From Magnetospirillum sp. (lineage in GTDB: Bacteria > Pseudomonadota > Alphaproteobacteria > CACIAM-22H2), in assembly GCA_027532905.1 (NCBI GenBank), contig JAPZUA010000001.1, positions 1,111,950 to 1,175,949 of the forward strand: a stretch of DNA of 64,000 nucleotides, written 5' to 3'. A model generated the notes under the pieces. The model ran no database searches. It was not told the DNA's origin and saw only the letters and a list, made by a program, of their open reading frames with translations. Shown here piece by piece: positions 8,514 through 31,188 of the stretch; the first letter of the stretch is position 1, and each line of letters begins with the position of its first letter. Position numbers and translations under genes: made by a program.

Positions 8514-8589
8514 GGGGCCATAGCTCAGCTGGGAGAGCGCCGCAATGGCATTGCGGAGGTCAGCGGTTCGATCCCGCTTGGCTCCACCA
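8514..8589 (+). tRNA. tRNA-Ala (anticodon GGC)
   Basis: A 76-nt cloverleaf: acceptor stem GGGGCCA/TGGCTCC with the G3:U70 alanine identity pair. The anticodon loop contains GGC. TTCGATCC is the T-loop, and CCA is encoded. Confidence 0.9.
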
Positions 8590-8597
8590 TATAGAAC

Positions 8598-8631
8598 AAG
8601 GGCTTAGCTGGAAACAGCTAGGCCCTTTTTC
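8598..8631 (+). terminator. Rho-independent terminator of tRNA-Ala
   Basis: The hairpin aagggcttagctg-gaaa-cagctaggccctt is followed by TTTTT. Confidence 0.8.
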
Positions 8632-8813
8632 ATTTGATTCTACCACCGTTCTACCACGGCAATGGCAAGATATGGCACTTTACGGCATGGCATTGAGCCC
8701 AAAAATCTTCACTCTCGAGAGTCGGGGCGGCTCTCAGCGACCTGCAAAACGTTCATTTTATACCTTGGCGAAATTTTCTCTGCGCATACATTGATTTTTG
8801 AAGGAGATTGATT

Positions 8814-9011
8814 ATGGCAGCCCGTGAAAATTACAGAGCTCATCAAGCCGCTGAATATCTTCAGATTTCTGCGAGTAGTTTAGCTAAGCGTCGCGTCGCG
8901 GGGTCTGGCCCCCAATTTTGCAAACTTGGGCGGATCGTCGTTTACCGGCGTGTCGATCTCGACGCTTGGTTAAACGAAAATTCCCGCGAAAGCACCTCGG
9001 AAGCGTCATAG
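8814..9011 (+). CDS. AlpA-family phage transcriptional regulator/excisionase-like HTH protein
   Basis: The motif YLQIS.SSLAKRRVAGSGPQFCKLGRIVVYRRVDLDAWL is typical of AlpA/Xis-like MerR-type HTH proteins. An AGGAGA ribosome-binding site precedes the ATG at 8814. The gene lies directly 3' of the tRNA. Confidence 0.75.
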   Translation: MAARENYRAHQAAEYLQISASSLAKRRVAGSGPQFCKLGRIVVYRRVDLDAWLNENSRESTSEAS

Positions 9012-9519
9012 TAGGTCCGGTCCTCGGTCGCGGAGTAGGCGGGAGCGACGCCGACGGCCCGCGCGCCCTTTTGGGAACGCCGTAGCGGACCGATGGCGGC
9101 TCGGGCGGCTACCGTCGATTCGTGGGTTAGCGTTGGTTTGCAGACGCCCCCCATAAACCTGAGGACCACCGATGACCGGTGAGATCATGAACCTTCGGCT
9201 GCTTTTGTCTATGAATCGGCGCTTAACTTTGACCACGGCATTAATATGAAGGATCCAAAGGACCTAAGCGCAGATCCGGTTGTTTAGAGGGCTCACGATT
9301 GAACGCTGAATAGCCGTCGATTATACTCCGACCAAGATCAAACGCTTTCATTCTGATGTCCCTACGCGCCCACTGAATTGAGCGCCGCTTATAATTGTTT
9401 CTCGAAGGCAGTTTTGTTAAGCCCGGCCAATTTCGCAAGATTTATCGCAATGCTCGCAGTGTCACTGCTTGATGTGCTGGTGGGACGCTGGCGCGGGTAC
9501 CCCCCTCTAAGTCTGCCAA

Positions 9520-9783
9520 CTATTTCTTCTTATTGTGAGCGCGTATGCCGATGGGGCGTGTCCCGACGGCACCACGATCTGCCGGCAAATCGCTGGGCTT
9601 CAACTTTTCAATCAATAGTTCGACCGTCGCGGGGATTCGGCGGATGCCTTGCTCCCAGTTTTTCAACGTACCTTTCGCAACGCCCAAGACCTCGGCCGCT
9701 TGCGCTTGCGTGAGATTGTTTTTGGTACGCCAGCTATAGAGCGCGTCGGGACCGAAATTTTTCATTCCCTCAAAATACGTCAT
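9520..9783 (-). CDS. XRE-family HTH transcriptional regulator
   Basis: The sequence LTQAQAAEVLGVAKGTLKNWEQG is a classic XRE helix-turn-helix. The gene is divergent from the 9881 gene. Confidence 0.8.
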   Translation of the reverse strand: MTYFEGMKNFGPDALYSWRTKNNLTQAQAAEVLGVAKGTLKNWEQGIRRIPATVELLIEKLKPSDLPADRGAVGTRPIGIRAHNKKK

Positions 9784-9811
9784 TGGTGCCTCGAGTGCGA
9801 GAGAAAATCCT

Positions 9812-9839
9812 TTACAAAGACACCAATGGTGTCTATAAT
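9812..9839 (+). promoter_or_regulatory. Sigma70-like promoter with embedded palindromic operator
   Basis: TTACAA (9812-9817), then 16 nt, then TATAAT (9834-9839). The spacer is exactly the palindrome GACACCA-A-TGGTGTC (9819-9833). This sits 40 nt upstream of the 9881 start, and the divergent XRE gene starts at 9783. Confidence 0.6.
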
Positions 9840-9880
9840 GCTTTCATCATCACGCTGCATCCCACAAATCGGAGACCGTT

Positions 9881-11242
9881 ATGTCCGACGACATCCCCAT
9901 CGCCGACCCGCTCGATTCCAAGATTTGGACGGCTGATCCCAGCCGGAGCTGGGATATCCGCCAATCGCGGCGCATCTGGAACTTTGTTTTGGCGTCTTGC
10001 CCTCTGATCGCGGCGCATCTAAGGGAACGAGGACCCAACGACATCGAGCCGGATCTGTTCGCGGATCTCGCGGTGCGCGCCTCCCGCGCCAAACTGTCGG
10101 ATGATGTCGTCGGGTCGCTCTGGTTTCTGGCCGCAAGCCGAAGCCATGTCGCTGCGGCGGGGGCCCTGGTTGGCATGCTCGCCCAATCTTCAAATACCAC
10201 GTCAATATCGATTGAAAGGCGACGGGCGATCCGGCATTGGCGCCGTCGTTTGGCGCGGGTCGAGGTGCTGGACGATGCAAAGCAATTGACGGCGGAGTTT
10301 TCTGCTTTGGTCAAATCTGCTGATCTGGACGAGAGACTTGCGGCCGATCGGTCTCGGCCCGAGTCCGGTCGCGAGCTGATGGTCCTGGCGCCAGCACTGG
10401 CGGCTGAGATCGAGCAGGATCGCGAGATAAAACCCTACAAGAGCCTCGGCGAAATGATGCGGCTTTGGCGACCGAAGACCTCATTCGACGTGCTCCAGAA
10501 AGTTCTGCACTTGGAGTTTCCGCATCTTGGCAGTGCTATCGATACGGTATTGGGTTCGGTTATGTCGGGGGGTGCCGATCGCGAACCGCCGGTGTTGTTG
10601 GTCGGCGCCCCCGGCCTTGGCAAGGACGCGCTGTGGCGGCGTGCATGCGAGCTTACGGGGCGGCCCTTCGTGGAATATGAGCTTGCTGGGACGGCCGATT
10701 CCCGCGCGCTCAAGGGCACCGCACGCGGCTGGTCTTCTCGGAATCCGAGCTATCCCGCCCAGGTCGCGCGGCGGCTGCAGGCGGCAAATCCCTGCGTTCT
10801 AATGACGGAATTGGACAAAGCGGGCGGGAACCCCGCGAATGGATTGATCGTCGATACCCTGCTCGCATGGCTGGAACCCGGATCGCGTGGACATTGGTTC
10901 GACGAGGGGCTGGGCGTGCCGTTGGATTTGAGCCGATTTACCTTCGGGTTCTCAGCGAACCGTATAGATCCGCTGCCGGGTCCGCTACGAAACCGGCTGC
11001 GGATCATCGCGATCAATGCGATCGCGCCGACACATGTCGATCTCTTGCTCGCCAATGTTCGTCGTCGCCACGCGACGCAACTGGGCGTTCGCGAGGGCGA
11101 CGTTCCCGAGCTCGACAAGCGGGTTGTTGCGCGGCTGCGTCAGGTCGCGCGGCAAGGCGGGTTGAATCTGCGGCTGCTGGAGCGGGTCATGCGCGCCGCT
11201 TTTCCTGAGCGGTCGCAAGCCATTTTCGCAAAATTCCATTAG
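9881..11242 (+). CDS. Lon-type AAA+ module protein with no protease domain and a non-canonical Walker A/B (GKD / TE), plus a novel N-terminal domain
   Basis: Residues about 230-450 align motif by motif with the Lon AAA+ module. GAPGLGKD matches GPPGVGKT. G..D...L.G..R.W.S..P matches the Lon [21 protein letters not shown] signature. NPCVLMTELDK matches NPLFLLDEIDK. FSANRIDPLPGPLRNRL matches ATSNSMNIPAPLLDRM. The N-terminal 220 aa are helical with no recognised domain. There is no Lon S16 protease region. A GGAGAC ribosome-binding site is present. Confidence 0.7.
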   Translation: MSDDIPIADPLDSKIWTADPSRSWDIRQSRRIWNFVLASCPLIAAHLRERGPNDIEPDLFADLAVRASRAKLSDDVVGSLWFLAASRSHVAAAGALVGMLAQSSNTTSISIERRRAIRHWRRRLARVEVLDDAKQLTAEFSALVKSADLDERLAADRSRPESGRELMVLAPALAAEIEQDREIKPYKSLGEMMRLWRPKTSFDVLQKVLHLEFPHLGSAIDTVLGSVMSGGADREPPVLLVGAPGLGKDALWRRACELTGRPFVEYELAGTADSRALKGTARGWSSRNPSYPAQVARRLQAANPCVLMTELDKAGGNPANGLIVDTLLAWLEPGSRGHWFDEGLGVPLDLSRFTFGFSANRIDPLPGPLRNRLRIIAINAIAPTHVDLLLANVRRRHATQLGVREGDVPELDKRVVARLRQVARQGGLNLRLLERVMRAAFPERSQAIFAKFH

Positions 11243-11254
11243 GGGCAGACCCCA

Positions 11255-11647
11255 ATGACACCGCAATCAATCTCAGTCGCGGTCACTTGGCCGAGTGATG
11301 TCTATCGCGAGTTCAAGGTAACTGTAACCAATGCCGCGTCTAAACAGGAAGTACCGAGCTACATTGACGCGGCTGCGAGGGGCATTAAAGAATGCGACAG
11401 CGTTCCGCGTACGGCGATCTTGAGACCGGCGCCACGCGTTTCGGTGATCCGACTTGCCGCCGATCCGACCTGCCGGTGTCAGATCAGCCGGGTTTCGAGC
11501 CTCGCGCCAAGAGGAAATTGGTCAAGGTTCCGGTTTGCGGTGAAGTGGGTGTCGCGCCTTGTCGCTGTGTGCGATGGATATACCGCCATGCGCGACTCGG
11601 TAATTCCGATTGCGGCAACACTCGCCGCGTTTTTTTTCATCAGATAG
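11255..11647 (+). CDS. Hypothetical protein, a possible partner of the Lon-like gene
   Basis: It starts 13 nt after the 9881 gene stops, on the same strand. The first 50 residues look protein-like. The second half is Arg/Cys-rich and may be an over-extension or a frameshift. Confidence 0.3.
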   Translation: MTPQSISVAVTWPSDVYREFKVTVTNAASKQEVPSYIDAAARGIKECDSVPRTAILRPAPRVSVIRLAADPTCRCQISRVSSLAPRGNWSRFRFAVKWVSRLVAVCDGYTAMRDSVIPIAATLAAFFFIR

Positions 11648-12273
11648 TCTTGCTGTGACTCGGCTTCCAAGGTTGACCCCGCCATTTCTACATCTATCAA
11701 ACCGATACTCCATAGAGTCTGGAGCGTTTCGGCGAAAAGAATCAACGTTAAAGCGTTCCCCTCTAGACCATCGAATCTGCGCTTAGGTCCATTGGCTTCT
11801 GCTTATTTATGCCGGGGTCAGATTTCAACGCCGGTTCACAGGCGGAAGCACTACAAAAAAATGGCTGCACTCGTCACTCAGATATCGGCCGCCAGCACCG
11901 GCGACGTTCGGCGAGATACAGCCTCTCAAACCGGTCGCCGGGATGCAGTAATCTCTCATTCGGCTTGGTTCAAAAACTCGATCAGGTCACTTGAATAACA
12001 TCGTTAATGCCCCGTCAACGCGGAGGTTTCGGCATTTAGGAAACCGGCGATGCATCCGAAAAAGAAGCTAGGCCTGAAAAGTCGATTTACTAGGATGATC
12101 TGCGGTGCGAGCGACCGACGTAAATTTCGTTGTTATGATCGACGACCTCGAAACTGCGGTGGCTATTGATCCTTTGTCGTATTGCGCACCGCGGCCGTAA
12201 GCTGGACCGAAAGTCGTTGGAGACGATACGCCTGATGGCGGTCGAACGGGTTCGCGATGGCGAAGCAGCGACG

Positions 12274-13527
12274 CTAAATAGGCAAGTCATTGGGATTCAG
12301 CTTAGGCTCAAGCTCTGCAGACCAAGAAAATGGTACCCCAATTGCGGCTACGTTCAGATCTGGGCGTCCATATCGCTGGAACGTTTTGGGATCGGAGTGT
12401 CCCATCATTGTGAGTCGGTCGCGCAGGGACAGATTGGTATCTTTGAGCAACGAAGCAAATCGATGGCGCAATACACGCGGCGTTACGAGTTTTCCGTCCT
12501 TTCCAAATATTTCACTCATGATCGCGGTGACCCTGTCATAGGCCTTCTTTGGCGACTTGACCCGCACAACCCGTAGGCCCTCCGGACCGGTCGCCTGCAA
12601 AAGCGCTCTAGTCCATGGCGCATCAGCCTTTACGGTAATACGGCGAACGCCAAGGCCAACATCTTTTTCTTTGCGGACCTTGACTGGCCGCAACTCGATT
12701 TCAACCAAATTGCAGCCTGGTGATCGGATGCTAACACCAAGAGCGATTTCTTCTGGGCGTGCGCCTGCCGCAAGCATAATACAGATTGGCAAATACCAAA
12801 TGCCGTGCGTGCGAGCGGCCTCCTCTAATTTGAATTCCCAATTTGGCGGAAGTCTTTTTAGACGTTCCCAGTATCGCTTTCGAGCGGGTGCCTTTTTGTA
12901 AGATGGTTGGGCAGACGTATCAAAAAGCGTTTTAGTAGCCCAAACGCAAAATTCGAGTGCCTGCAGCGCATATTGCCGCTCCCCATCATCTGACTTGCAG
13001 CAAATGTTGTTCCAATAATCCAAGGCGCTAAAAATCGCGCATTCGAGCCAGATGAGGCATGCCGTATGAACTTTCTTTCGATGCCCACCTGAAAATCTTC
13101 GGAGGTCGAATCCGTCGGTTCTTGAGCACTCCGCCTTATAAATTTTTTGGTAGGCGCGTTCTGTTTGCGCTGTTCGCACTGCATCAATTCGCGATCGCCA
13201 TTTTTCGCCGATAATATTTTGCGTTTGCGTCAAATGATCGATTGCGATTTGTATTCTTTCGAATTCTTGGTCTATCAGTTCGCCGTGTCGCTTTTCGCTT
13301 AAGAAAGAATGGTACTCTTCTGGCTCAAGCGCGTCGGCCGCGAATTCATATTCGAAGTATCGTCTTTCCTCGCCCCCCTCCCTTATTCTTCCCGGGGGAA
13401 GATAAGAGGGGGAAGATGATGTTGGAGATAGTGTAGGCACTTGGGCATGCGCCCGGGTTGAGCCCACCGAAGCGAGACCGCTAGATGCGGCGAGAAGCGA
13501 TGATCCTATTTTATCGGTATTGAACAT
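12274..13527 (-). CDS. Tyrosine recombinase / phage-type integrase
   Basis: The C-terminal catalytic region carries R...HxxR (LRHRFAS)...MGHSD...Y (FQRYGR) motifs. The N-terminal 200 aa are atypical. This is the distal end of the tRNA-Ala island. Confidence 0.75.
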   Translation of the reverse strand: MFNTDKIGSSLLAASSGLASVGSTRAHAQVPTLSPTSSSPSYLPPGRIREGGEERRYFEYEFAADALEPEEYHSFLSEKRHGELIDQEFERIQIAIDHLTQTQNIIGEKWRSRIDAVRTAQTERAYQKIYKAECSRTDGFDLRRFSGGHRKKVHTACLIWLECAIFSALDYWNNICCKSDDGERQYALQALEFCVWATKTLFDTSAQPSYKKAPARKRYWERLKRLPPNWEFKLEEAARTHGIWYLPICIMLAAGARPEEIALGVSIRSPGCNLVEIELRPVKVRKEKDVGLGVRRITVKADAPWTRALLQATGPEGLRVVRVKSPKKAYDRVTAIMSEIFGKDGKLVTPRVLRHRFASLLKDTNLSLRDRLTMMGHSDPKTFQRYGRPDLNVAAIGVPFSWSAELEPKLNPNDLPI

Positions 13528-14268
13528 GGTGGCTCCTTTCCTCGGCGACAGAAACAGCGCCGTGTTAGAGACAACATATTAGTTTTGATCGGAATGGGCG
13601 CTTATACCGCTTTTTTTCGTACTACCGGCATTCACTTTTTTTCAAAAGCCCGGGCTCCAGGTCGGCATCTACGGCATCAGATAAATGGCCGCCAGACCAT
13701 TAAGTCACTAAAATCTTTATAATTAACACGGCAGCAGCTAGCCGGACGGCGTCGCGGATCGTCGTATATGCCTCGGAGCCTGCAATCTCCCCGTTGCCAA
13801 GATTGATGAGACCACCGTCTTGTATCCCGATGATCGTGTCCCCATCGGATCTGGTCATTCCAAGAAGTGTCTTGATGCCGGACGCGGTCGGCGTGTTATC
13901 GATATTGGCGACACACTGCACGTCATTGCTTTAGCCAGAATTAAGGGATCCCAATATTTACATTATAAATGTGTAAATTTTAGTATCTTTGTCGGCCCCG
14001 CCTCTAAATCGTGTCTCTTACATGTCCTTCGAAAATGTTGATTTCGCCGTCCAGTTTGAGTGACCTGACTGAAGTACTCCACTGGATCTGTAGAAATCGG
14101 CAAATTCGAACACTTGTTGTCTGTGCTATTTTGCCAGAAGACCCGCAACGGCATCACTTGATTAAGGTTGGACGGAGATCGAGGTGCGCATGTTACGAAT
14201 TTCTTGTGGCGTTAGACTTCACGAACTAGGAACCAGACGAGCTCCAACACAGACATGTCGACAGTCCA

Positions 14269-14985
14269 TCAGCCGCCAGCACCGCGCGCCGTTGCCAACC
14301 CTGCAAGATGATGCAGAACTTCGTCAGCTTTCATGACGTCGGCGTACTTGTGATGCAGATCGAAAAGGTTGATCTTGTGGATCAGATCCGAGCGATCGAA
14401 GGTGCATTCTTCGACGACCGAAATGTGATATCCGCCCGAATAGCCATCAATACAAGTTGCTCTGACGCAGCCTGAAGTGCTCTCGCCGCACACGATTAGG
14501 CTGCGCACCCCAAGCATCGTAAGGTGCGATCCCAGAGGTGTTCCGGCGAACGCCGAGGCGCGCTGTTTGACGATGACGACATCTTCCGGGGCCGGCGACA
14601 GTTCGGGATGGATTTCGTAGTCGTCAGGCGATGAAGTCATCCGCTGCCGACGTGTCGGTTCGACCCCGCCTGGCTTGCTTAGTGGACGCGCATCCGACGT
14701 GCTGTAGAAAATGGGGATGCTTGCGCGTCGGGCTACCGCAAGGAGCCTCTTTGTTGGGTCCAGCGCATTCCAGGCGTTGATTCCGCACGAACTGGGCCAC
14801 TGCGCCTGAACGTCGACTGGCGGCTTGCGGCCGCCACGATATGCCGAGTTATAGAGATCGACGGCGATGATGGCAGGGCTCGGCCCGACGAACGTGCGAC
14901 GGGCGTAGGCACTGTAGATCGTGAGCGTGTCGCGATCGACCACGTCTTTCCAGCAGTGGTCTTCAAACGCTTCGATTTCTGCCAT
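14269..14985 (-). CDS. Isochorismatase-family cysteine hydrolase (amidohydrolase)
   Basis: The motif IVCGESTSGCVRAT with a catalytic Cys is typical of the isochorismatase/CSHase/maleamate-amidohydrolase family. Confidence 0.75.
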   Translation of the reverse strand: MAEIEAFEDHCWKDVVDRDTLTIYSAYARRTFVGPSPAIIAVDLYNSAYRGGRKPPVDVQAQWPSSCGINAWNALDPTKRLLAVARRASIPIFYSTSDARPLSKPGGVEPTRRQRMTSSPDDYEIHPELSPAPEDVVIVKQRASAFAGTPLGSHLTMLGVRSLIVCGESTSGCVRATCIDGYSGGYHISVVEECTFDRSDLIHKINLFDLHHKYADVMKADEVLHHLAGLATARGAGG

Positions 14986-15038
14986 GGTTCAAGGCTCCTG
15001 ATCTGTGAATTGGGTGGCGATGCGCGATGCGCCCGCAA

Positions 15039-16346
15039 TCAGTTTTTGGCGCCGAGACCCGCCCGGAACTCAGGATGAGCCACCGGCTTCCTAGTCGATG
15101 TATCCGGCCTGCTATCGCCTGCCTCGATGAAGGTGACCGCAATTGCGGCCACGAAGCACAGCAGTCCGGAAATCACGAAGGCAGAAAAGTAGTCGCTATA
15201 TGTCACTCGGATCAGCGCTGCAAAGGCAGCCGCCGAGGCCCCTCCCAACTGGTGGCACACGAACACCCAGCCGAATACCAGCGGTGCGCGCTCGCGGCCA
15301 AACGTATTGGCCAATATGCGGACGGTCGGTGAAACGGTCGCGAACCAACCCAGACCGAAAAATGCAGCAAATATCGACATGGTATAGATATCGTCAAACG
15401 AGAACGGCAGATAGAGAAGCGATACCCCTCTGACGCCGTAATAGATCGCCAACAGGCTGCGATTGTCGAACTTGTCCGAAAGCCAGCCCGACAGGGAAGT
15501 GCCAAAGAAATTGAACATACCCATCGTTGCGAGAAGCGCCGCTCCGGTGATCTCTGAATATCCGTGATCGACGCAGGCAGGAATCAGGTGCGTCCCGAGC
15601 AATCCGTTCGTCGATGCGCCGCAGACAAAAAATGTCCCACTGATCAACCAAAAATTTCGGTTTGAACTTGCATTGCGAAGCGCCAGAAATGCGAGTGCGA
15701 AAGGATTTTCATGTCGGCTGGAGATCGGCTCGATCGGTTGCGTCTCGCCGTAAGGCAACATGCCCACGTCGGATGGCCGATCTCGGAAGAAAATCACGAC
15801 GAGCGGCAGCAGCGTGCAAAGTACGCCAACGATGCAAACAAGCGTGATACGCCATCCGTAGGCAGAATTGACGCTAGCCATCGCGGGCAGGAAAATCAGT
15901 TGGCCTGTCGCGGCAGCCCCCGAGAATATCCCGATGACTAGGCCTCGTTTCGTCGTGAACCATCTGGACGCGACCGTTGCGGCGAGAACCGTCGCCAGAA
16001 AGCCGGTACCCGTTCCGACGAGAACGCCCCACACGACGATCAACTGCCAGACGTGCTCCATGAAGGCTGTCGCTGCGATTGCCCCGGCGAGGACGAGAAG
16101 CGCGACGAGGATGCATCGCCGAACGCCATATCGTTCCATGATCGCGACCGCAAACGGCGCAATGAGCCCATAGAGCAGGAGATTCAAAGATACGGCGAAG
16201 CTGATCGTCGCCCGAGACCATCCGAATTCCTGCTCAAGCGGCAGTATCAGGACACCGGGCGTTGCCCGTATTCCGGCACCGGCCAAGAGGACGAGGCTTG
16301 TCACGCCGACGATGATCCAGCAATAGTCGATCGGCAGTTTTCTCAT
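15039..16346 (-). CDS. MFS transporter
   Basis: A 12-TM hydrophobic profile with MFS signature loops. Confidence 0.8.
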   Translation of the reverse strand: MRKLPIDYCWIIVGVTSLVLLAGAGIRATPGVLILPLEQEFGWSRATISFAVSLNLLLYGLIAPFAVAIMERYGVRRCILVALLVLAGAIAATAFMEHVWQLIVVWGVLVGTGTGFLATVLAATVASRWFTTKRGLVIGIFSGAAATGQLIFLPAMASVNSAYGWRITLVCIVGVLCTLLPLVVIFFRDRPSDVGMLPYGETQPIEPISSRHENPFALAFLALRNASSNRNFWLISGTFFVCGASTNGLLGTHLIPACVDHGYSEITGAALLATMGMFNFFGTSLSGWLSDKFDNRSLLAIYYGVRGVSLLYLPFSFDDIYTMSIFAAFFGLGWFATVSPTVRILANTFGRERAPLVFGWVFVCHQLGGASAAAFAALIRVTYSDYFSAFVISGLLCFVAAIAVTFIEAGDSRPDTSTRKPVAHPEFRAGLGAKN

Positions 16347-16411
16347 GATTTCGTGGTTCTTCTTCGTCCAGAATTTGAAGCGAACAGATCCTGCCGCTGA
16401 GCGAAATCCGT

Positions 16412-17236
16412 CTAGTATGGCTTCTCGCCCAGCAGCGTCAGTCGACGAAGCAGTCTGCGCTCGCTTGAGTCAAAATCCGTTCTAGCATGCAGGCAGGACC
16501 GATTGTCCCAGAACATCAGATCGCCGACGGTCCATACGTGCTCGTAAACATAACTTTGCTGCTCTTGATGCGCGAAAAGCTCGTTCAAGATGGCATCACT
16601 TTCATCTCTCGGCATTCCGACGATGTACTGGGTCAGTAGCCTGTTTACATAGAGCGCCTTTCGGCCCGTCGGAGGGTGTGTCCGGAAAATCGGATGAATG
16701 AAACTTCTGGGTCCGAGGTTCGCCGACGACGGTCGAAGCGTACTGACCGTGTCGTAGCTATGCATCGCTGACTTTCCAGACAGCGCGGCCTTAAGGTGTG
16801 TCGGCAGGTCGTCGTACGCCTGAAGCGCATTGGCGAAGAGGGTGTTCCCGCCTTTCGACGGAATCTCCAACGCATAGAGCATCGTTCCGGTCGCTGGCTT
16901 TTCGATATAGGTCTGATCCGAGTGGAAGTGCATTTCGCCGTCGGGTAGGGAGCCGATCAACTTCCCGTCTTCCCGAATGTTCGAGATCAGCATGATCGCG
17001 GGATTCGATTTCGCTGCACGCTCGGCGTTTGCCGTTTTTGCAAGCGGTCCGAAACGTTCTGCAAATCGTATCTGCGCGTTTTCGCCGATCTTTTGACCCC
17101 GGAACAGGATCACACAGTGCCTTTCCCACTCCTGCCGAATACGGGAAAATTGGTTTTCGGTGAGGTCTTCCGAAAGGTCGAAACCAACCGCTTCAGTGCC
17201 GATAGCTTCCGAAAGGGGCCTAAACTCAAGCGCCAT
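16412..17236 (-). CDS. TauD/TfdA-family Fe(II)/2-oxoglutarate-dependent dioxygenase
   Basis: An HxD...H iron triad is present (HSDQTY...H) with the TauD-like C-terminus WDNRSCLHAR. An ATG at 17236 has a GGGAGA ribosome-binding site. Confidence 0.8.
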   Translation of the reverse strand: MALEFRPLSEAIGTEAVGFDLSEDLTENQFSRIRQEWERHCVILFRGQKIGENAQIRFAERFGPLAKTANAERAAKSNPAIMLISNIREDGKLIGSLPDGEMHFHSDQTYIEKPATGTMLYALEIPSKGGNTLFANALQAYDDLPTHLKAALSGKSAMHSYDTVSTLRPSSANLGPRSFIHPIFRTHPPTGRKALYVNRLLTQYIVGMPRDESDAILNELFAHQEQQSYVYEHVWTVGDLMFWDNRSCLHARTDFDSSERRLLRRLTLLGEKPY

Positions 17237-17589
17237 GGAGTTGTCTCCCATGATCCGTTTCCGACAAAGATAGACTGGAGAAACTTGTAGGAAGGTCGAC
17301 TCGCATTCGATCAACGGCGATCTTCAAGGCTTGCGCAAATGGCACCTCGCTCAGATTGCACAAATCGGGTGGGGTAGATTGGGAGAAATCCCCAAATGAA
17401 TAAGCACCAGCCATAGAAGTACGCATAGGAGTGCTGTATTTAAGAGGTCTAGCGCAAAGACAGATACATTGGACTTCAAGCGAGCGTAGATCAGCATGTC
17501 TGATTACCTCAGCTAGGAGATTCAGCCGAATTGCGGCCCGGAGATCTTCAATAGTCTACGGACGCGTTGAGCACGACGCACCGACATCG

Positions 17590-18573
17590 CTACCTTACCT
17601 TCGCAAGGGTATTCTCGCCCAGAGAGCCGAGAGCGCTTACGCGGTTGTTCTTTTTCAACCAATCGAGAAGATCCCTAAGCTGCCGATCCCGCTCTCGAAC
17701 GCGCTGGTCGTTGTTCTCGTCCCAGCGATACCATCCAGCTCCCGCCGATGCGCCGATCTGGCCGCTGTCGGCCAGATTCTTCAGGATAGCCGGCGGCGCG
17801 AAGTGGGCGTTGCCGGTTGCCTTGTAGATGTAGTCCATGACGGCCACGATGGTTTTCTTGCTGGTCGAAAGATCCTCCTGCATCATCGGACCCCATAGTG
17901 CCAGCCTAGGACCGATGCTAAGTCGCACGGCCATATCGATGTCGTGGGCAGTCGATACGCCCTCTTCAAGGATTTTTTGAACTTCCGCTTTCAGCGCATA
18001 CTGGATTCGATTGATTATGAATCCGGGGCACTCGCGACAAACGATCCCCACGTGATCGATGGTTTCGAGAAAGCTCTGGGCCCGCACGACGAACTCGGGT
18101 GCCGTGAAGTCGGCCGTGATGATCTCGACAGCCTGGATCAAATGCGCCGGCGCGACGTAATGGATGCCGATCACCCGCCGCCGCCCCGGAACATCCACAC
18201 AGATCTCGCTGAGCAGGAATGAAGACGTATTCGTGGCCAGCATTACGTCTCCGGCACACATTTCGTCGAGCTGCCGGAAGAGCGCACGCTTCGCTTCGAG
18301 ATCCTCGTGGATGATTTCATGAACGAGGGTTGCGCCCTGGACGCAGCTCTCGAGAGAATCGTGAAGCTTTATCCGGTCGAGTATCTCGTCCTGCGCTTCC
18401 TTGGACTCCGCGAGATTCCCGAGGATGGGGCGCACCCGATCAGCAAACCCGTCAAGGCTCTTCCGGTTCTGATCGTAGAGGCCGACTCGGTGCCCGCGGG
18501 CAGCACACAATGCGGCGATGACCGTCCCCATAAGTCCTGCGCCGACGATTGCGATCGAGCCATTCATGGTCAT
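17590..18573 (-). CDS. 3-hydroxyacyl-CoA (3-hydroxybutyryl-CoA) dehydrogenase family protein
   Basis: The motif IAIVGAGLMG is a Rossmann fold. The C-terminal 3HCDH domain is present. Confidence 0.8.
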   Translation of the reverse strand: MTMNGSIAIVGAGLMGTVIAALCAARGHRVGLYDQNRKSLDGFADRVRPILGNLAESKEAQDEILDRIKLHDSLESCVQGATLVHEIIHEDLEAKRALFRQLDEMCAGDVMLATNTSSFLLSEICVDVPGRRRVIGIHYVAPAHLIQAVEIITADFTAPEFVVRAQSFLETIDHVGIVCRECPGFIINRIQYALKAEVQKILEEGVSTAHDIDMAVRLSIGPRLALWGPMMQEDLSTSKKTIVAVMDYIYKATGNAHFAPPAILKNLADSGQIGASAGAGWYRWDENNDQRVRERDRQLRDLLDWLKKNNRVSALGSLGENTLAKVR

Positions 18574-18634
18574 CCTTCTTTCCTTTACCCATTTCCCGAA
18601 AACGGCCCGGCTATTGGACGGTCAATTCGAAGAA

Positions 18635-18673
18635 GTGTACCAAAAATCACTCTAGTGTCCAATTTTGGAACAC
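18635..18673. promoter_or_regulatory. Inverted motif pair GTGTACCAAAAA...TTTTGGAACAC (copy A of a 47-bp repeat)
   Basis: GTGTACCAAAAA lies at 18635-18646 and TTTTGGAACAC at 18663-18673. The pair is upstream of the 3HCDH gene. Confidence 0.5.
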
Positions 18674-18850
18674 TACATACTTGGATACTCAGTGATTATC
18701 TTCATGATCGAAGCCATTTCCAGGCATCGCCAGCATGCACACCCTCGCTTGTTCGCCGTAGGCGCCCATAGGACAGTCTGAGCAGTTTGCGAACCGGAGT
18801 GCTTTCGGCTCATCGTCATCGTGAATGGGACGAGGATGAGACCGATGTAA

Positions 18851-19093
18851 CAGACCCCGCCGAACGACACAGCCCAGCGCGACGAGCTGCTCGATGGCGA
18901 GATCTTCTACAGCCAGGCCGAAGCCAAAGTGCTGATCGAGGGTTGGGGGCGGCACTACAGCACGATCCGCCCGCACAGCAGCCTTGGCCATCAACCGCCA
19001 GCCCCGGAAACCGCAACGCCACCATCGCCGCCTTCCGGTTCCGCTTCGCTCCACCTACTGCCGGCAATGGTGAAGGAGGCCACAATGCACTAA
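18851..19093 (+). pseudogene. IS3-family transposase (OrfB integrase core) C-terminal remnant
   Basis: The translation ...NDTAQRDELLDGEIFYSQAEAKVLIEGWGRHYSTIRPHSSLGHQPPAPE matches the conserved IS3-family OrfB tail. It is truncated by an in-frame TAA at 18848 and has no N-terminal part. Confidence 0.7.
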
Positions 19094-19132
19094 CAGTTTA
19101 TCCGGACCACTCGATGGGGGGCGACCGCCATA

Positions 19133-19171
19133 GTGTACCAAAATTTGTCCTAGAGTCTATTTTTGGAACAC
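19133..19171. promoter_or_regulatory. Inverted motif pair GTGTACCAAAAT...TTTTTGGAACAC (copy B of a 47-bp repeat)
   Basis: The 47-bp block is about 85% identical to copy A at 18635-18680. It lies upstream of the 19232 gene. Confidence 0.5.
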
Positions 19172-19231
19172 ACTACATTCGTTCTCTTAGACGTTTTTTT
19201 ATCAGCGGTTCCGCGATTGGATGCCTCGCAG

Positions 19232-20221
19232 ATGCACACGCTCACCTTAAGCCTCGCTTGCGGCGACTATGACCGCACTCGTGCAGTATTTGATGGCCGT
19301 GCTCCCATCGATGGCTGCACAATCATCCCGCTCGCAATGCCGCCCGAAGAAGCGTTTCCGCGGGCACTGCGGCATCAGTCCTTCGATATCAGCGAACTAT
19401 CGATGGCGAGCCATATGACCCAAGTTGACCGGGGCACGAACGCCTACATTGCGGTGCCGGTCTTCCCGTCGCGTTTGTTCCGCCACTCCTCGATCTACGT
19501 GCGGCGCGATCGGGGGATCGCACACCCCTCTGATCTCAAGGGCCGCCTCGTAGGCGTGCCAGAGTACCAGATTACAGCAGCCGTCTGGGTGCGTGGCATT
19601 CTTCAGGATGAGTACGGCGTCCTACCTGCCGATTTGCGTTGGCGTACGGGAGGGGTCGAACAGGCAGGGCGAACGCCGAGCGTCACACTAAAGCTCCCAG
19701 GAAACGTCGATGTATCAGCCATTCCAGATCACGATACGCTGTCGGCCCAACTGGATCGGGGCGATATCGACGCGCTTGTATCTGCGATGCCGCCCTCGTG
19801 CATGAAGACAAATCGTGAGGTTGGACGTCTCTTTCCGGACTACAAGGCCGTCGAGTCCGAATACTTCGCGAAGACCGGCATCTTCCCGACCATGCATTTG
19901 GTCGGGATTCGAAAGCGGCTGGTCGAGGAGCATCCATGGTTGCCCTTCAATGTGTATCGCGCATTTGCAAGAGCGAAAGAACTTTGCTACGCGCGGCTCG
20001 AAACGCTCGGACATCTCTATACGACCTTGCCTTGGCCGGTTGCTGAGCTTGAGCAAACACGTGCACTTCTCGGGCAAGATTTCTGGCGCTACGGCGTCGA
20101 CGAAAACCGAAAAGAGATCGACGCGCTGGCTAGATACCTCCATGAACAAGGCCTTACTGCGCGCCGCTTGACGGCAGAAGACGTGTTCCATCCGTCTACT
20201 TTTTCGATCCCAAAGCTCTGA
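19232..20221 (+). CDS. PhtD-like (4,5-dihydroxyphthalate decarboxylase family, NMT1/THI5-like fold) protein
   Basis: It is paralogous to 22590-23576 (shared LSCGDY, AVWVRGIL.DEYGV, GIFP.MHLV). The start is placed at an ATG at 19232. The stop overlaps the start of the Mo-subunit gene (TGATG). Confidence 0.65.
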   Translation: MHTLTLSLACGDYDRTRAVFDGRAPIDGCTIIPLAMPPEEAFPRALRHQSFDISELSMASHMTQVDRGTNAYIAVPVFPSRLFRHSSIYVRRDRGIAHPSDLKGRLVGVPEYQITAAVWVRGILQDEYGVLPADLRWRTGGVEQAGRTPSVTLKLPGNVDVSAIPDHDTLSAQLDRGDIDALVSAMPPSCMKTNREVGRLFPDYKAVESEYFAKTGIFPTMHLVGIRKRLVEEHPWLPFNVYRAFARAKELCYARLETLGHLYTTLPWPVAELEQTRALLGQDFWRYGVDENRKEIDALARYLHEQGLTARRLTAEDVFHPSTFSIPKL

Positions 20222-22572
20222 TGCCTAAGCTCGTCGGCCAGTCGGTTCCCCGAATCGAAGATCCGCCGCTTCTGCGCGGTACAGCCCGCTTCGTCGACGA
20301 CGTCAATCTTCCAGGGATGTTGGCAATTGCATTTGTGCGAAGCCCGCATTCGCATGCTTCGATCGGCCGTATCGACACGCAGGCGGCACGTGCTTTACCA
20401 GGCGTTCGTGCTGTCTTCACGATGGAAGACCTTCGGCACCACCTAACCGCGGACAGATTGGTCGTCGCCCTGCCGAGCGCGGCCTATCTGCTTGAGGTGC
20501 ATCGCCCAATTCTCGCCGACCGGGAAGTCGCCTATGTCGGCGAAGCAGTCGCCGTCGTCGTTGCGGAAAGCCGCAACGTCGCCGAGGACGCCGCAGCTCT
20601 GGTGGATATTGAATACGAACCGCTGGCAGCAGTAGCTGACTGCCGCGCTGCACTTCGCGAAAACGCACCGAGAGTGCATAGCGCACACCCCCACAATATT
20701 GCCGCCCGCTTTACTCTGGGGTTCGGCGACATCGACCGTGCATTCGAAGATGCCCACCATGTATTCAGCGAGTCTCTTTGGCAGCATCGTGGTGCAGCAC
20801 ATCCTCTCGAGTGTCGCGGGGTGGTCGCAATACACGACCCGCAGAGCGACGTCCTTACGGTCTGGTCGTCGACTCAAACGCCGCACACCGCACTCGCACA
20901 GATCTGCGATTTGCTCGGACGCACGGAAAATCAGGTGCGCGTGATTACCCCAGATGTCGGCGGCGGTTTCGGACCAAAGCTCGTTTTCTACCCTGAAGAC
21001 CTCATTGTGCCGCTAGTCGCACTTCGCCTCGCCGCGCCGGTGAAATGGATCGAAGACCGCCAGGAACATTTCATCGCAACGACACAAGAGCGCGACCAGT
21101 TTTGGGACGTGGAAATCGCGGTCACACGCGACGCACGAATACTCGGCGTACGCGGAAGGGTCGTCCATGACCACGGCGCCTATACGGCCCGCGGCTTGAC
21201 TGTTGTCCAGGGAGCAATGTCCGCGCTTCCTCTCGCGTACGATATTCCGGCATATCAGATCGAAGGTCTGGCAGTGCTTACGAATCTGGTTCCAGTCACG
21301 CCGGTGCGCGGGGCCGGCCAGCCGCAAGGCGTCTTTGCGATGGAACGATTGCTCGATCGGGTCGCAAATGAACTTGGACTTGATCGCATGGAAGTTCGTC
21401 GACGCAATCTCGTGCGTAGAGAACAGATGCCATTCACGAGGCCGTTTGCAACACGGGGCGGAATCCCAATTTCGCTTGATTCCGGCGACTACCCAGCCAC
21501 TATGTCGGCGGCGGCTGAAAAAGCCGACTGGGTCGGTTTCAAGGCGCGCCAAAAGCTGGCGTTGCAAGCCGGACGCCATATCGGCATTGGTCTTGCCAAC
21601 TATGTCGAGGGAACAGGGCGCGGCCCTTACGAGTCGGTTTCAGTGCGCATTGACCGCAGCGGGAAAGTTCTTGTCGCCACCGGTGCGGTAGCTATGGGTC
21701 AAAGCACCAAAACGATGCTGGCACAAATCGTCGCCGACGAACTCGGCGGCGACATGTCGAACATCATCGTCACTGCCGGCGACACAAGCGCCATCGCCCA
21801 AGGGTTCGGCGGGTTCAACAGTCGACAGGCTGTTACGGCAGGATCGTCGGCGCTCATCGCCGCCTGCAAGCTGCGGGATCGCATTTTGGACCTAACCGCC
21901 AAGGTTCTTGAAGTCGCGCGCAGCGACCTTGCGATCCAGGGGCGCACCGTCCGAATTGTGGGAACGGACCGAAGTTTGGATTTCGCTGATTTGGTCAAGA
22001 AGGTCGTTGGGCTGCCTGGATACCGCATGCTCGACGCGCACGGCCCGGAACTTGCCGTAACCGAGCACGTCCAGATCGATCCAATGGCCTACGCGAACGG
22101 ATGCGCTGTGGTTGAAGTCGAGGTCGACCCCGAAATCGGCCGTGTCGATATCCGGCGCGTCACCTTCGCGCACGACTGCGGGCGAATGATCAATCCAAAA
22201 ATCGTCGATGGACAGGTAATAGGCGGTATCGTGCACGGCATCGGCAATACCTTGTTCGAGTGGATGCGTTACGGTGCAGACGGCCAGCCACTCACGACCA
22301 CGCTTGCGGACTACATGCTGCCAACCGCAACCGAAATTCCGCCCATCGATCTTCTCCACCTAAGCAGCCCAACGCCGCTCAATCCGCTCGGCATTAAGGG
22401 TGTCGGCGAAGCCGGCGTCATTCCAATGAGCGCTGCCATCGTCGCCGCGATCGAAGATGCACTTTCCCCTTTGGGGGTACATCTTTCGGGCAGCCCGATA
22501 ACACCGAACAACCTCCTCGCTGCCATTCACGGTTCAGCGCAGAATTGGGATGCGGAGCCAGCGACGCAGTAG
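20221..22572 (+). CDS. Xanthine dehydrogenase-family molybdopterin-binding subunit (CoxL/aldehyde oxidase-like large subunit)
   Basis: The 783-aa product has the N-terminal a/b hammerhead motif and Mo-binding domains (VGGGFG, GxGQG, C-terminal AGE...GxxG). No FAD or FeS subunit genes are adjacent. Confidence 0.85.
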   Translation: MPKLVGQSVPRIEDPPLLRGTARFVDDVNLPGMLAIAFVRSPHSHASIGRIDTQAARALPGVRAVFTMEDLRHHLTADRLVVALPSAAYLLEVHRPILADREVAYVGEAVAVVVAESRNVAEDAAALVDIEYEPLAAVADCRAALRENAPRVHSAHPHNIAARFTLGFGDIDRAFEDAHHVFSESLWQHRGAAHPLECRGVVAIHDPQSDVLTVWSSTQTPHTALAQICDLLGRTENQVRVITPDVGGGFGPKLVFYPEDLIVPLVALRLAAPVKWIEDRQEHFIATTQERDQFWDVEIAVTRDARILGVRGRVVHDHGAYTARGLTVVQGAMSALPLAYDIPAYQIEGLAVLTNLVPVTPVRGAGQPQGVFAMERLLDRVANELGLDRMEVRRRNLVRREQMPFTRPFATRGGIPISLDSGDYPATMSAAAEKADWVGFKARQKLALQAGRHIGIGLANYVEGTGRGPYESVSVRIDRSGKVLVATGAVAMGQSTKTMLAQIVADELGGDMSNIIVTAGDTSAIAQGFGGFNSRQAVTAGSSALIAACKLRDRILDLTAKVLEVARSDLAIQGRTVRIVGTDRSLDFADLVKKVVGLPGYRMLDAHGPELAVTEHVQIDPMAYANGCAVVEVEVDPEIGRVDIRRVTFAHDCGRMINPKIVDGQVIGGIVHGIGNTLFEWMRYGADGQPLTTTLADYMLPTATEIPPIDLLHLSSPTPLNPLGIKGVGEAGVIPMSAAIVAAIEDALSPLGVHLSGSPITPNNLLAAIHGSAQNWDAEPATQ

Positions 22573-22589
22573 TTAGCGCGATGGATGAA

Positions 22590-23576: not shown

Positions 23577-23587
23577 CTGAATCCCGA

Positions 23588-24838: not shown

Positions 24839-24948
24839 AATTCACCTTCCTGATTGCTCAATCTGAGACTGAAGTCTGAGGCGAACCAACCACTGGCCGC
24901 CAAGCGGAGACTCCGCTCACGCTTTTCCATCGACGCTGACGAGAAGCC

Positions 24949-26907: not shown

Positions 26908-26998
26908 TGATGTCCACCGATAAGCCGAAAGCGGTCTACTTCATGCCGACTACTTAAGAATGGCCCCGCGAGCAAGTAGCGGGGCCATCGTCGTCAAC

Positions 26999-28015: not shown

Positions 28016-28104
28016 TTCCAATCCCCTCATTTGGACCCCTGCCGTCCGGATCGCTGCAGGCGTCGTTGATCGAGCATTCGCCTCATCTGTTTCATTTTAT
28101 GATA

Positions 28105-28122
28105 TCGTACCAAAAAAAGAAC
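28105..28122. promoter_or_regulatory. Motif half-site TCGTACCAAAAAAAGAAC
   Basis: It matches the GTGTACCAAAAA half of the recurrent motif. It sits in the divergent TAXI / alcohol dehydrogenase intergenic region. Confidence 0.35.
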
Positions 28123-28164
28123 GCAACAATAAACACATGGCTCCGTCAATAAAGAAGGTCCCAG

Positions 28165-29190: not shown

Positions 29191-29265
29191 CTGATTGCAG
29201 TTTGTTCGGAACGAAGCGCTGCGGCCGGATGTCGCCTTGTTCTACGACATCCGGCCGCACGCCAT

Positions 29266-31163: not shown

Positions 31164-31175
31164 AATTTTGAACAC
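31164..31175 (+). promoter_or_regulatory. Motif AATTTTGAACAC
   Basis: A variant of the recurrent TTTTGGAACAC motif. It lies just upstream of the ribosome-binding site of the 31189 gene. Confidence 0.35.
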
Positions 31176-31188
31176 TAGGGGATTAACA

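Follow-up and report, generated by a model that had tools for sequence, protein, structure and literature searches.

What occupies the DNA directly past a tRNA-Ala gene in this Magnetospirillum sp. genome, and how far does it extend? In the stretch analysed (64,000 nt, hereafter the window), an initial annotation had placed a compact integrative, mobilisable island of about 5 kb (8.6-13.6 kb), in which an integrase and an AlpA-like protein move only a Lon-like gene pair. Our preferred reading, to which we give a probability of roughly 0.5, is that a large genomic island or flexible region, at least 65 kb long, is linked to the tRNA-Ala gene and has had its recombination module split by an IS3-associated cassette. 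The 8.6-14.3 kb segment would then be the tRNA-proximal head of this block, lying directly past the tRNA-Ala(GGC) terminator. It would hold the presumptive recombination module, formed by the AlpA-like gene and a convergent, highly divergent tyrosine recombinase (Table 1), with a cassette of about 2.8 kb, bracketed by inverted repeats, inserted between the two. Within the cassette, an XRE gene would act as repressor of a divergent operon whose two products are a LonA-type AAA+ ATPase without a protease domain and a 130-aa partner.

Table 1. Features at and beyond the tRNA-Ala gene, in window coordinates.
Feature	Position	Strand	Evidence
tRNA-Ala (anticodon GGC)	8514..8589	+	ARAGORN; Rfam 61.5 bits
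tRNA intrinsic terminator, type B (hairpin and T-run)	8598..8632	+	terminator scan (hairpin 8598-8627)
AlpA-like/excisionase-type HTH_17 gene, 65 aa	8814..9011	+	Pfam HTH_17; PHROG 66; Logan gene call
Inverted repeat (110 nt), left arm, brackets cassette	9200..9309	.	76% identity to 11850-11742
XRE-family HTH regulator, 87 aa	9520..9783	-	HTH_3, E 1.9e-8 (Pfam)
ATPase operon promoter: TTTACA, 17 nt, TATAAT	9811..9839	+	consensus match 11/12
AAA+ ATPase, 453 aa	9881..11242	+	Pfam; TIGR00763; PDB profile; Foldseek
Conserved partner protein, 130 aa	11255..11647	+	four homologues; HMM built from homologues
Intrinsic terminator ending ATPase/small-gene operon	11611..11637	+	6-bp stem, 5 GC pairs, then T8
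Inverted repeat (110 nt), right arm	11742..11850	.	self-match to left arm
IS3-family transposase gene remnant, 3' end (HSSLRYRPPAPAT)	11841..11989	+	blastn; tblastx
Tyrosine-recombinase-like ORF, intact, 417 aa	12274..13527	-	Pfam below cut-off; PHROG 1; XerD alignment
AT-rich spacer, integrase start to first cargo gene; GC 0.48	13528..14268	.	
Rest of strain-specific low-GC block, catabolic and transport genes	14269..64000	.	Pfam scans

Genes at the tRNA-proximal end

ARAGORN and a terminator scan confirmed the tRNA-Ala gene and its terminator, and an HTH_3 match confirmed the XRE gene. The AlpA-like protein also held up, scoring 29.8 bits against HTH_17 in Pfam (cut-off 27 bits) and matching PHROG 66, 'excisionase and transcriptional regulator'. 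It is 65-67 aa long; the Logan gene call starts at the ATG at 8814 and the longest open reading frame at 8808. The reported drop in GC content was found as well, with values of 0.50-0.54 over 11.85-13.5 kb and 0.48 over 13.5-14.27 kb.

The call of a tyrosine recombinase stood in part. The ORF is intact, with no sign of degradation, and resembles such an enzyme, but its score against Pfam Phage_integrase (PF00589), 21.4 bits, falls below the gathering score of 27.1. It matched the PHROG 1 integrase (E 9.5e-8) and, weakly, XerD in the PDB (E 0.025). Aligned to XerD, its Box II reads RVLRHRF ... GHSD ... QRY, which retains the second Arg, the His and the nucleophilic Tyr but has Arg in place of the first His; the Box I Arg (GARPEE) and the Lys were identified only by eye. 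A search for homologues returned only the ORF itself, an orphan with a GC content of 0.505, and a single-sequence AF2 model had a pLDDT (38) too low for use. Because no att site was found (see below), the integrase is an orphan below the Pfam cut-off and one catalytic His is replaced, site-specific integration is only presumptive and recombinase activity putative.

The AlpA-like gene and the integrase lie 3.3 kb apart. Removal of the cassette, from 9200 to about 11990, leaves about 475 bp between them and makes them convergent neighbours. A convergent adjacent pair is what working modules usually show. We infer that the two form a single recombination module serving the whole block, in which AlpA would act with the integrase in the control of excision.

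The tRNA-Ala junction and the extent of the block

We compared the locus with 11 distinct contigs from close relatives (within L092-L103), two of which (L092 and L093) were aligned to the window. Over window positions 1 to 8589 or 8630 these two are 98.3-98.5% identical to it, and homology ends at one or the other position. In type-A relatives (L093 and L094), blastn homology stops exactly at the last base of the tRNA, 8589. The type-B terminator is common to the window and eight close relatives (in this region L101 and the window differ at 3 of 41 positions), and window-specific DNA begins at about 8631-8633. The element does start directly after the tRNA-Ala terminator, as had been claimed, with its junction at 8590 (type A) or about 8631 (type B).

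Past the tRNA, each of the 11 contigs has one of three short variable segments and then a conserved core, which comprises a 97-aa gene, PRC, an epimerase (absent in L095), FliG, DUF6934-like DUF6134, RibF, MaoC, Crp and AcrB. No match to this core was found in the window or in a 9.6-kb extension of it (L091), which implies an insertion or replacement of at least 65 kb, consisting mostly of catabolic genes. The whole of 8.6-73.6 kb is missing at the tRNA-Ala site in these close relatives, so the site has an indel polymorphism in a unit of at least 65 kb. The annotated mobile-element type of the segment is supported. The tRNA-Ala(GGC) flank is a hypervariable site in this Magnetospirillum-like lineage. 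The relatives' loci had no integrase call, so variation at this hot spot may come about by homologous recombination.

The GC content is 0.659 in the left flank, 0.541 over 8.59-14.27 kb, and 0.578 over both 14.27-64 kb and 64-73.6 kb; over 8590-73588 it is 0.575, with about 0.66 in the relatives' core flanks. Low-GC, strain-specific DNA thus runs past the right boundary drawn at 13.6 kb and continues unchanged to at least 73.6 kb in the extension. Logan contig 279 is unbroken from the window equivalent of 11951 to 77838, through 13.5-14.3 kb.

Searches for an att repeat of the tRNA 3' end found none with up to 3 mismatches in 25 nt in the window, no k-mer of 12 nt or more shared with that end in the window, and none in the 64-73.6 kb extension, where the sequence examined ends, short of the block's distal end. 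The AT-rich spacer contains no att-like repeat. The best match (18 of 20 bases at 14656, E 0.57) lies inside an isochorismatase CDS. These searches confirm the initial impression, gained by eye, that there is no convincing attR, for 11.6-14.5 kb, and extend it to 73.6 kb. No conjugation, replication or further recombination genes were found in the 14-73 kb part.

An island of about 5 kb is very improbable on this evidence. The gene order resembles that of a minimal element, the GC content is lowest in the 8.6-13.6 kb region (0.48-0.55), and at one other locus (L086) the cassette stands beside a different, P4-type integrase. However, no attR was found up to 73.6 kb, the DNA right of 13.6 kb differs from the native flank in the 11 relative contigs, the assembly graph is unbroken at 13.5-14.3 kb, and neither AlpA nor the integrase accompanies the cassette elsewhere. 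The segment is therefore not a 5-kb unit, the Lon-like pair is not the only cargo of an element, and the original proposal is largely refuted. In the annotation, the island boundary should be moved, and at least 65 kb of catabolic accessory DNA should take the place of a 5-kb element.

The junction could also be an assembly artefact, with the metagenome-assembled genome (MAG) joining unrelated regions at the tRNA, or the breakpoint of a chromosomal inversion there. Logan contig L089 begins exactly 30 nt (k-1) before the end of the tRNA, which means that the short-read graph branches at the tRNA, and a step of 8-9 points in GC content marks the junction. With the short-read assembly broken at exactly this place, the join across the tRNA depends on the MAG assembly. 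However, a branch is expected in any case, since co-occurring relatives share the tRNA. In L089, moreover, the final 30 nt of the tRNA run into the type-B terminator specific to the species group, so this island-side contig is anchored in the tRNA-Ala locus of the lineage. Retention of the lineage-specific terminator after the tRNA in the window is a sign of genuine linkage, and we consider an artefact or rearrangement improbable.

A further possibility, which we hold to be real if not probable, is accretion at a hot spot. The tRNA-Ala flank would be a flexible island, replaced by homologous recombination in the conserved flanks, and the 5-kb head would be debris of one or more dead elements (AlpA, an orphan integrase, IS3 remnants and the cassette), with no functional tie to the catabolic block of about 60 kb. 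Near-identical genomes show four alternative occupants of this site, and the three in relatives come without an integrase or att repeats. The GC content is heterogeneous across 8.6-14.3 kb (0.48 to 0.62), IS3 remnants lie at 11.84-11.99 and 18.75-19.09 kb, and the integrase has no relatives. Two points, both weak, speak against accretion: that the integrase ORF is intact, with its Box II Arg, His and Tyr, and that AlpA and the integrase become adjacent and convergent once the cassette is taken out. Because the sequence examined stops before the distal end of the block, the data do not decide between one large island, the reading we prefer, and several accreted pieces.

The XRE, ATPase and partner cassette

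The Lon-like label fits the ATPase only for the ATPase module of Lon; no other part of Lon was matched. A family-specific helical N-domain (residues 1-232) is followed by a LonA-type ATPase module (233-440). The protein matches TIGR00763 at positions 356-559 only (E 1.7e-19), with a score of 69.8 bits that is far under the 608-bit equivalog cut-off. A PDB profile search aligned it to Lon residues 345-545 (E 7e-31), and the top Foldseek matches of the predicted fold were all LonA structures (probability 1.0). The protein terminates at residue 453, 13-17 residues past the AAA lid, and so lacks the C-terminal Ser-Lys protease domain; Pfam, TIGR00763 and the PDB profile gave no Lon_C match. Pfam likewise gave no match to the LAN (PUA-like) N-domain (PF02190). 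The N-terminal 232 residues are predicted to be all-helical and are confined to their own small family (9 cluster representatives in 1.84 billion), and the ATPase family as a whole is very rare: a word-indexed search of 5.8 billion clusters yielded about 17 proteins.

The ATPase shares with LonA the Walker A motif GxxGxGK, the Walker B Glu, the sensor-1 Asn and the Arg finger, and the AAA+ module aligns throughout. The aromatic residue of the pore loop is kept too, but as Trp in place of Tyr. Unlike LonA, and besides lacking both the protease domain and the LAN/PUA N-domain, the ATPase has a Walker A that reads GKD, and 12 of the 13 aligned family members have Thr, Asn or Ser where the Walker B Asp would stand.

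The small ORF downstream, also proposed initially, is a genuine conserved gene and forms a true conserved pair with the Lon-like gene. Its product has the motif RLAADPxCRCQIS and a hydrophobic C-terminus, and it has four homologues of 129-130 aa (57-72% identity). With an HMM built from these four, the ORFs directly 3' of the ATPase gene in L083, L084, L086, L087 and L088 were the top five of 1781 ORFs.

The XRE gene, divergent from the ATPase/partner operon, was found by tblastn in L081-L088 at 58-92% identity, and it stays together with the ATPase gene in every one of these homologous loci. On plasmids, more distant ATPase relatives (30-40% identity) also have an HTH gene as divergent partner. 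A perfect palindrome, GACACCAATGGTGTC, lies at 9819-9833, within the -35/-10 spacer of the ATPase promoter. The two boxes are conserved in L081, L083, L086, L087 and L088, and among the compared loci the palindrome is clear only in L081 and L087. It is the presumed XRE operator and, given its position between the -35 and -10 boxes, XRE probably binds it and most likely represses the ATPase operon.

The cassette recurs in about 10-20 Rhodospirillales contigs, at several unrelated sites and without this AlpA or integrase; unlike XRE and the ATPase, neither is conserved in L081-L088 by tblastn. Its GC content is below that of the flanks in every locus, and IS3 elements or remnants adjoin it in L081, L083, L086 and L088 and in the window. 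Its occurrence elsewhere beside IS3, without this AlpA or integrase, marks it as a nested, separately mobile unit and not as cargo of the integrase. In L088, inverted partial copies of IS3 orfA bracket it. In the window it lies between the arms of the 110-nt inverted repeat (9200-9309 against 11850-11742, E 4e-15), of which just two copies exist in all the data. The remnant at its right end is IS3 orfB, with blastn matches to IS3 transposase genes on Bradyrhizobium plasmids and concordant tblastx, and it coincides with a Logan contig break at 11951-11972. The window's inverted repeat matched no IS3 sequence, no target-site duplication was found beside it, and no intact transposase flanks the window cassette. 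The cassette would have arrived by IS3-mediated transposition and appears to have been moved repeatedly by IS3 elements.

PADLOC-DB 2.0 gave no match at E <=0.01 for the ATPase, the small ORF, AlpA or the integrase, and only generic HTH matches for XRE. As a guess, the ATPase could be an ATP-driven unfoldase or remodeller that acts with or on its small partner, and the cassette could serve a mobile-element accessory function such as defence or maintenance. It is conceivable, although we think it unlikely, that mobile elements carry in this cassette a functional module not described before, which spreads in Rhodospirillales on IS3-flanked units. One example would be a switch based on an unfoldase, for anti-phage defence or element maintenance, with the small protein as adaptor or substrate and XRE silencing the operon. 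A defence or maintenance role, if true, would put the Lon motor to a new use.

Comparison with known mobile elements

The island is ordinary in kind, and the cassette is its sole mildly novel element. This nested unit, a Lon ATPase split from its protease, joined to a conserved small protein and placed under a putatively XRE-controlled promoter, is the one item that deserves specialist attention. Its layout resembles that of cassettes on mobile elements in which an XRE regulator is divergent from an effector, with C-protein or cI-like control, in having an 87-aa HTH_3 gene divergent from an effector operon and a perfect palindrome inside the effector promoter, although regulation here is predicted and the PADLOC search linked the effector to no known defence, toxin-antitoxin or maintenance protein. 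The inverted partial IS3 copies around the L088 cassette, and the inverted repeats with a transposase remnant at one end in the window, recall IS3-family composite transposons. Unlike these, the window has neither an intact transposase nor a target-site duplication, and its repeat matches no IS.

Catabolic genomic islands and integrative elements at tRNA genes are a known kind, such as the ICEclc type at tRNA-Gly and the P4-integrase islands. The block differs from them in that no att direct repeat was found and in having its junction past the tRNA terminator and not within the tRNA. Its integrase is an orphan under the Pfam threshold, 3.7 kb from the junction, and the 65 kb seen hold no conjugation genes, with the distal end outside the examined sequence. 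By analogy, however, it would belong with these islands as a big low-GC block of accessory catabolic genes that starts at a tRNA gene, is missing in close relatives, and carries tyrosine-recombinase-like and excisionase-type HTH genes at its tRNA-proximal end.

Extent of the block and its junction with tRNA-Ala

Contigs of close relatives were found by exact-protein look-ups with the LapA and FYDLN-acid proteins of the window, and 11 distinct contigs were obtained (L092-L103, with three contigs present twice). The two relatives that were aligned are 98.3-98.5% identical to window positions 1-8589/8630. All 11 carry a short variable segment 3' of tRNA-Ala. In nine contigs it holds a 400-aa gene for a pentapeptide-repeat protein, in one (L093/L094) it holds a response regulator, and L095 has a KAP NTPase together with cytochrome P460 there. 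The 400-aa gene had been suspected of encoding an integrase and proved to encode a pentapeptide-repeat protein. Beyond the variable segment lies a conserved core with a GC content of ~0.66, complete where the contig extends (a 97-aa gene, PRC, epimerase, FliG, DUF6134, RibF, MaoC, Crp and AcrB), from which the epimerase is missing in L095. By tblastx, no counterpart of the variable segments or of the 9-kb core is present in the window or its extension. A scan of GTDB genomes with AroA for an empty site gave a best match of 66% identity, which was too distant, and synteny past the tRNA was uninformative.

No tRNA-fragment (att) repeats were found in L094-L096, which represent one relative per segment type, and no integrase was called in any relative's locus. 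The tRNA-Ala(GGC) site thus behaves as a flexible and hypervariable locus that is occupied in at least four alternative ways. That the relatives' segments have neither integrases nor att repeats also fits the main rival to the history proposed below, in which the head of the block (8.6-14.3 kb) consists of debris that built up at a recombination hot spot and has no relation to the cargo; we consider this possible, if rather unlikely.

The initial annotation had described a compact island of ~5 kb with a Lon-like gene pair as its only cargo. The anatomy that it reported (the tRNA, the named open reading frames and the fall in GC content) is all present, and its account of gene content stands, but the island boundaries were wrongly placed. 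A 25-mer pattern of the tRNA 3' end, allowing up to 3 mismatches, matched only the tRNA itself across the window, and the tRNA end shared no k-mer of 12 nt or longer with the rest of the window. Searches for an attR by pattern and repeat families, and by short-word blastn and k-mers in both the window and the extension to 73.6 kb, returned chance-level matches only; the best (18/20 bases, 14656-14675, E 0.57) lies within the isochorismatase CDS, and another matched 14/15 bases at 19041. GC content, 0.659 in the left flank, drops to 0.541 at 8590-14268, with a minimum of 0.48 at 13528-14268, and to the right of 13.6 kb it stays below the flank level (0.578 for 14269-64000 and 0.578 for the next 9.6 kb). 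This 9.6-kb extension past the window is provided by Logan contig SRR22360650_279 (L091), which is continuous over window-equivalent positions 11951-77838 and so crosses the proposed attR region. Because there is no copy of the tRNA end, the GC content is still low, the relatives' flank is missing and contig 279 is unbroken, the strain-specific unit at tRNA-Ala is at least 65 kb. The same comparative data contradict the compact 5-kb island, which we regard as very improbable. Contig 279 ends at window-equivalent ~77838 (~77.8 kb), a candidate distal junction of the island.

The placement of the insertion point 3' of the terminator, outside the tRNA, was borne out, as the 'type B' terminator (ACAAGGGCTTAGCYGGAAACRGCTARGCCCTTTTT) is common to the window and the pentapeptide-type relatives, which diverge from each other at ~8631-8633; in L101, one of the relatives, the terminator differs from that of the window at 3 of 41 positions. 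L093/L094 and L095 have a different, 'type A' terminator, and their similarity to the window ends with the last base of the tRNA. An Rfam search of 8.3-20 kb returned the tRNA only. Just past the terminator (8633-8700), the window contains short direct repeats (TTCTACCAC twice and ATGGCA four times), and short tandem motifs (GCTNGCACC twice and TTCAGCTA three times) occupy the equivalent position in the pentapeptide-type relatives. These repeats may be protein-binding sites or coincidence.

The Logan short-read assembly of the source run, SRR22360650, breaks at the tRNA 3' end (8560; k-1 overlap). One of its contigs, L089, is exactly window 8560-11972; since it opens with the final 30 nt of the tRNA, followed by the shared type-B terminator, it is anchored in the tRNA-Ala locus of this lineage. 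This is evidence against a chimeric join. The sharing of the terminator with relatives also makes an assembly chimera or rearrangement less likely, and we consider such an origin of the block improbable.

Features of the tRNA-Ala locus and the adjoining block (positions along the window)
Feature	Position	Strand	Remarks
tRNA-Ala(GGC)	8514-8589		sole tRNA of the window
Terminator	8598-8627		13-bp stem, directly after tRNA-Ala
AlpA-like gene	8808/8814-9011	+	HTH_17, 29.8 bits (cut-off 27 bits); PHROG 66 'excisionase and transcriptional regulator'
XRE gene	9520-9783	-	87 aa, HTH_3 (Pfam)
ATPase gene	9881-11242	+	AAA (PF00004) and partial Lon model (Pfam, NCBIfam)
Small ORF	11255-11647	+	130-aa partner, without family match
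Terminator	11611-11637		closes after ATPase/partner
IS3 transposase 3' remnant	11841-11989		HSSLRYRPPAPAT
Integrase ORF	12274-13527	-	417 aa, intact, GC 0.505
IS3-family remnant	18748-19093		internally deleted: left end, orfA start (TAA stop at codon 5), orfB C-terminus (...IEGWGRHYSTIRPHSSLG)
Molybdopterin hydroxylase large subunit	20221-22572		one of 3 paralogues
Molybdopterin hydroxylase large subunit	32171-34531		one of 3 paralogues
Molybdopterin hydroxylase large subunit	45734-48088		one of 3 paralogues

Catabolic cargo and a proposed interrupted recombination module

After 14.3 kb, Pfam scans of the window and of its extension (L091, to 73.6 kb) identified catabolic and transport genes. 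In addition to the molybdopterin hydroxylases, the block at 14269-73.6 kb contains two TauD-family oxygenases and one 2OG-Fe(II) oxygenase, together with CoxG, an isochorismatase-family hydrolase, an amidase, an FAA hydrolase, a glyoxalase and a TcuA/TcuB-like pair. Transporters of the TRAP, ABC and Opp types and regulators of the GntR and LysR families are also present, and the cluster looks like an island for degradation of N-heterocyclic or aromatic compounds. From 14.3 to 73.6 kb, no genes for conjugation or replication and no additional recombination genes were found. Megablast of the cargo against plasmids returned only IS3 and short conserved-gene matches, and the first cargo gene, scanned against metagenomes, had no identity above 66% among the matches listed. 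Within the cargo, the 5' part of the IS3-family remnant at 18748-19093 is 82-86% identical to IS3 copies adjoining the cassette (the XRE, ATPase and 130-aa partner genes) in three other loci (L083, L086 and L088), and its orfB part shares 84.8% identity with an IS3 on a Sphingomonas plasmid. Direct repeats of 40 nt, themselves partly palindromic (GTGTCCAATTTTGGAACAC), flank the remnant (18634-18673 and 19132-19171).

The 417-aa ORF in the head is a plausible candidate recombinase. It matched Phage_integrase at 21.4 bits, below the gathering score of 27.1 bits, and PHROG 1 integrase with an E value of 9.5e-8. Aligned to Box II of XerD, its C-terminus (PRVLRHRFAS/PHVLRHAFAT, GHSD/GHSD and QRY/QIY) retains the Arg, His and Tyr nucleophile, with the first His replaced by Arg; a Box I-like GARPEE motif was assigned by eye. 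A search of 5.8 billion clusters retrieved only the protein itself, the viral contigs scanned contained no relatives, and the closest plasmid matches were 22-24% identical. The single-sequence AlphaFold model had an unusably low pLDDT of 38.

When the cassette is taken out (9200 to ~11990), the AlpA-like gene (+) and the integrase gene (-) are convergent and ~475 bp apart, the typical layout of a recombination module. In the window, a 110-nt inverted repeat surrounds the cassette (9200-9309 versus 11850-11742; 76% identity, E 4e-15), and a break in the Logan assembly at 11951-11972 falls inside the IS3 transposase remnant. IS3 sequences also accompany the cassette elsewhere: an IS3 end lies ~100 nt 3' of the ATPase gene in L081, an IS3 orfA gene is 3' of it in L083, L086 and L088, and L088 has the cassette between inverted, partial copies of orfA. 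A 'conserved element' of 130-240 nt that lies near the cassette in L083, L086 and L088 proved not to be an RNA; it is the 5' end of an IS3 orfA gene.

The most economical history, to which we give a probability of about one half, is that a large low-GC catabolic island lies next to tRNA-Ala, carrying an AlpA/integrase module at the end nearest the tRNA, and that the IS3-associated cassette would later have inserted into this module and split it. As an island the block is ordinary, its boundaries having been previously misplaced. The nested cassette is rare and uncharacterized, and merits a modest flag.

A conserved XRE, ATPase and partner cassette

At every locus with an ATPase homolog (L081-L088; 42-81% identity), a divergent XRE gene of 87-91 aa is kept alongside; the AlpA-like gene and integrase of the window were not found in these loci. 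The small ORF is a genuine gene. Four homologs of 129-130 aa are 57-72% identical to it, and one of these is presumably on the same 3823-bp contig as the ATPase homolog P0002. With an HMM built from these homologs, the top five of 1781 six-frame ORFs were those directly 3' of the ATPase gene in L088, L083, L084, L086 and L087 (E values of 3e-4 to 0.017), with the common motif L-x-A/V-D-P-x-C/Y-R/K-C/I. Because the XRE gene is kept with the ATPase gene and a partner ORF is 3' in these five loci, the conserved unit is an XRE gene divergent from the ATPase and its small partner. Its GC content is below that of the surroundings in every locus, and literature searches returned no description of it. 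On plasmids of Roseomonas and Azospirillum, AAA relatives that are more distant (30-40% identity) are likewise divergent from an HTH gene.

The 97-nt intergenic region contains the best sigma-70-like site of the 6 kb scanned (TTTACA, 17 nt, TATAAT; 9811-9839, 11/12 match), and a perfect palindrome, GACACCAATGGTGTC (9819-9833), occupies the -35/-10 spacer of this ATPase promoter. Both boxes are kept in all five homologous loci aligned, and the palindrome is clearly present only in L081 and L087. From this arrangement we infer that the XRE protein would repress the ATPase operon through the palindrome as a putative operator.

The cassettes in L083-L085 (L083, 12.2-18.1 kb) and L088, whose ATPase is 48% identical to that of the window, have a defense-island-like neighborhood with DUF6932, a Prok-E2/JAB/ThiF pair (ubiquitin-like, Bil-type), an HTH and Peptidase_M78 (ImmA/IrrE-like) pair, and IS66; L088 additionally has a Fic gene and a 1366-aa HTH_3 protein. 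In L086 (7915-13031), from a Tagaea MAG, the cassette is beside IS3 and a P4-type integrase (Arm-DNA-bind_3 and Phage_integrase), and no tRNA was detected in the vicinity. Here the cassette is associated with an integrase for a second, independent time, and the integrase is a different one.

The ATPase compared with Lon

The ATPase family is very rare. A word-indexed search retrieved 17 proteins from 5.8 billion clusters, exhaustive HMMER of the N-terminal 232 residues against 1.84 billion gave 9 cluster representatives, and the viral contigs scanned contained no relatives. PADLOC had no match for the ATPase or its partner. As a working guess, the ATPase may be an XRE-repressed unfoldase or remodeler that acts with or on the partner and is accessory to a mobile element.

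Both sequence and structure prediction relate the protein to Lon. It matches only positions 356-559 of the 795-position NCBIfam Lon model (69.8 bits versus a cut-off of 608 bits), and a 13-member profile of the family aligns with Lon residues 345-545 (E 7e-31). The AlphaFold model, made with this 13-sequence alignment, has a mean pLDDT of 81.4, and in it an AAA+ fold comes after a helical N-domain; the top Foldseek matches were all LonA structures. The family conserves the Walker A GxxGxGK, an invariant Walker B Glu, the sensor-1 Asn and the Arg-finger region. Its nucleotide-binding motifs (window 10601-10870, residues ~242-330) are nevertheless unusual. Of the 13 aligned members, 12 have Thr, Asn or Ser in place of the Walker B Asp. 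Where Lon has GKT/S in Walker A, the family has GKD, and the pore-loop Tyr of Lon is an invariant Trp. Unlike LonA, the ATPase has no LAN domain, and because it stops right after the AAA lid it has no protease domain. It is predicted to work like the motor of Lon, without being a Lon protease.
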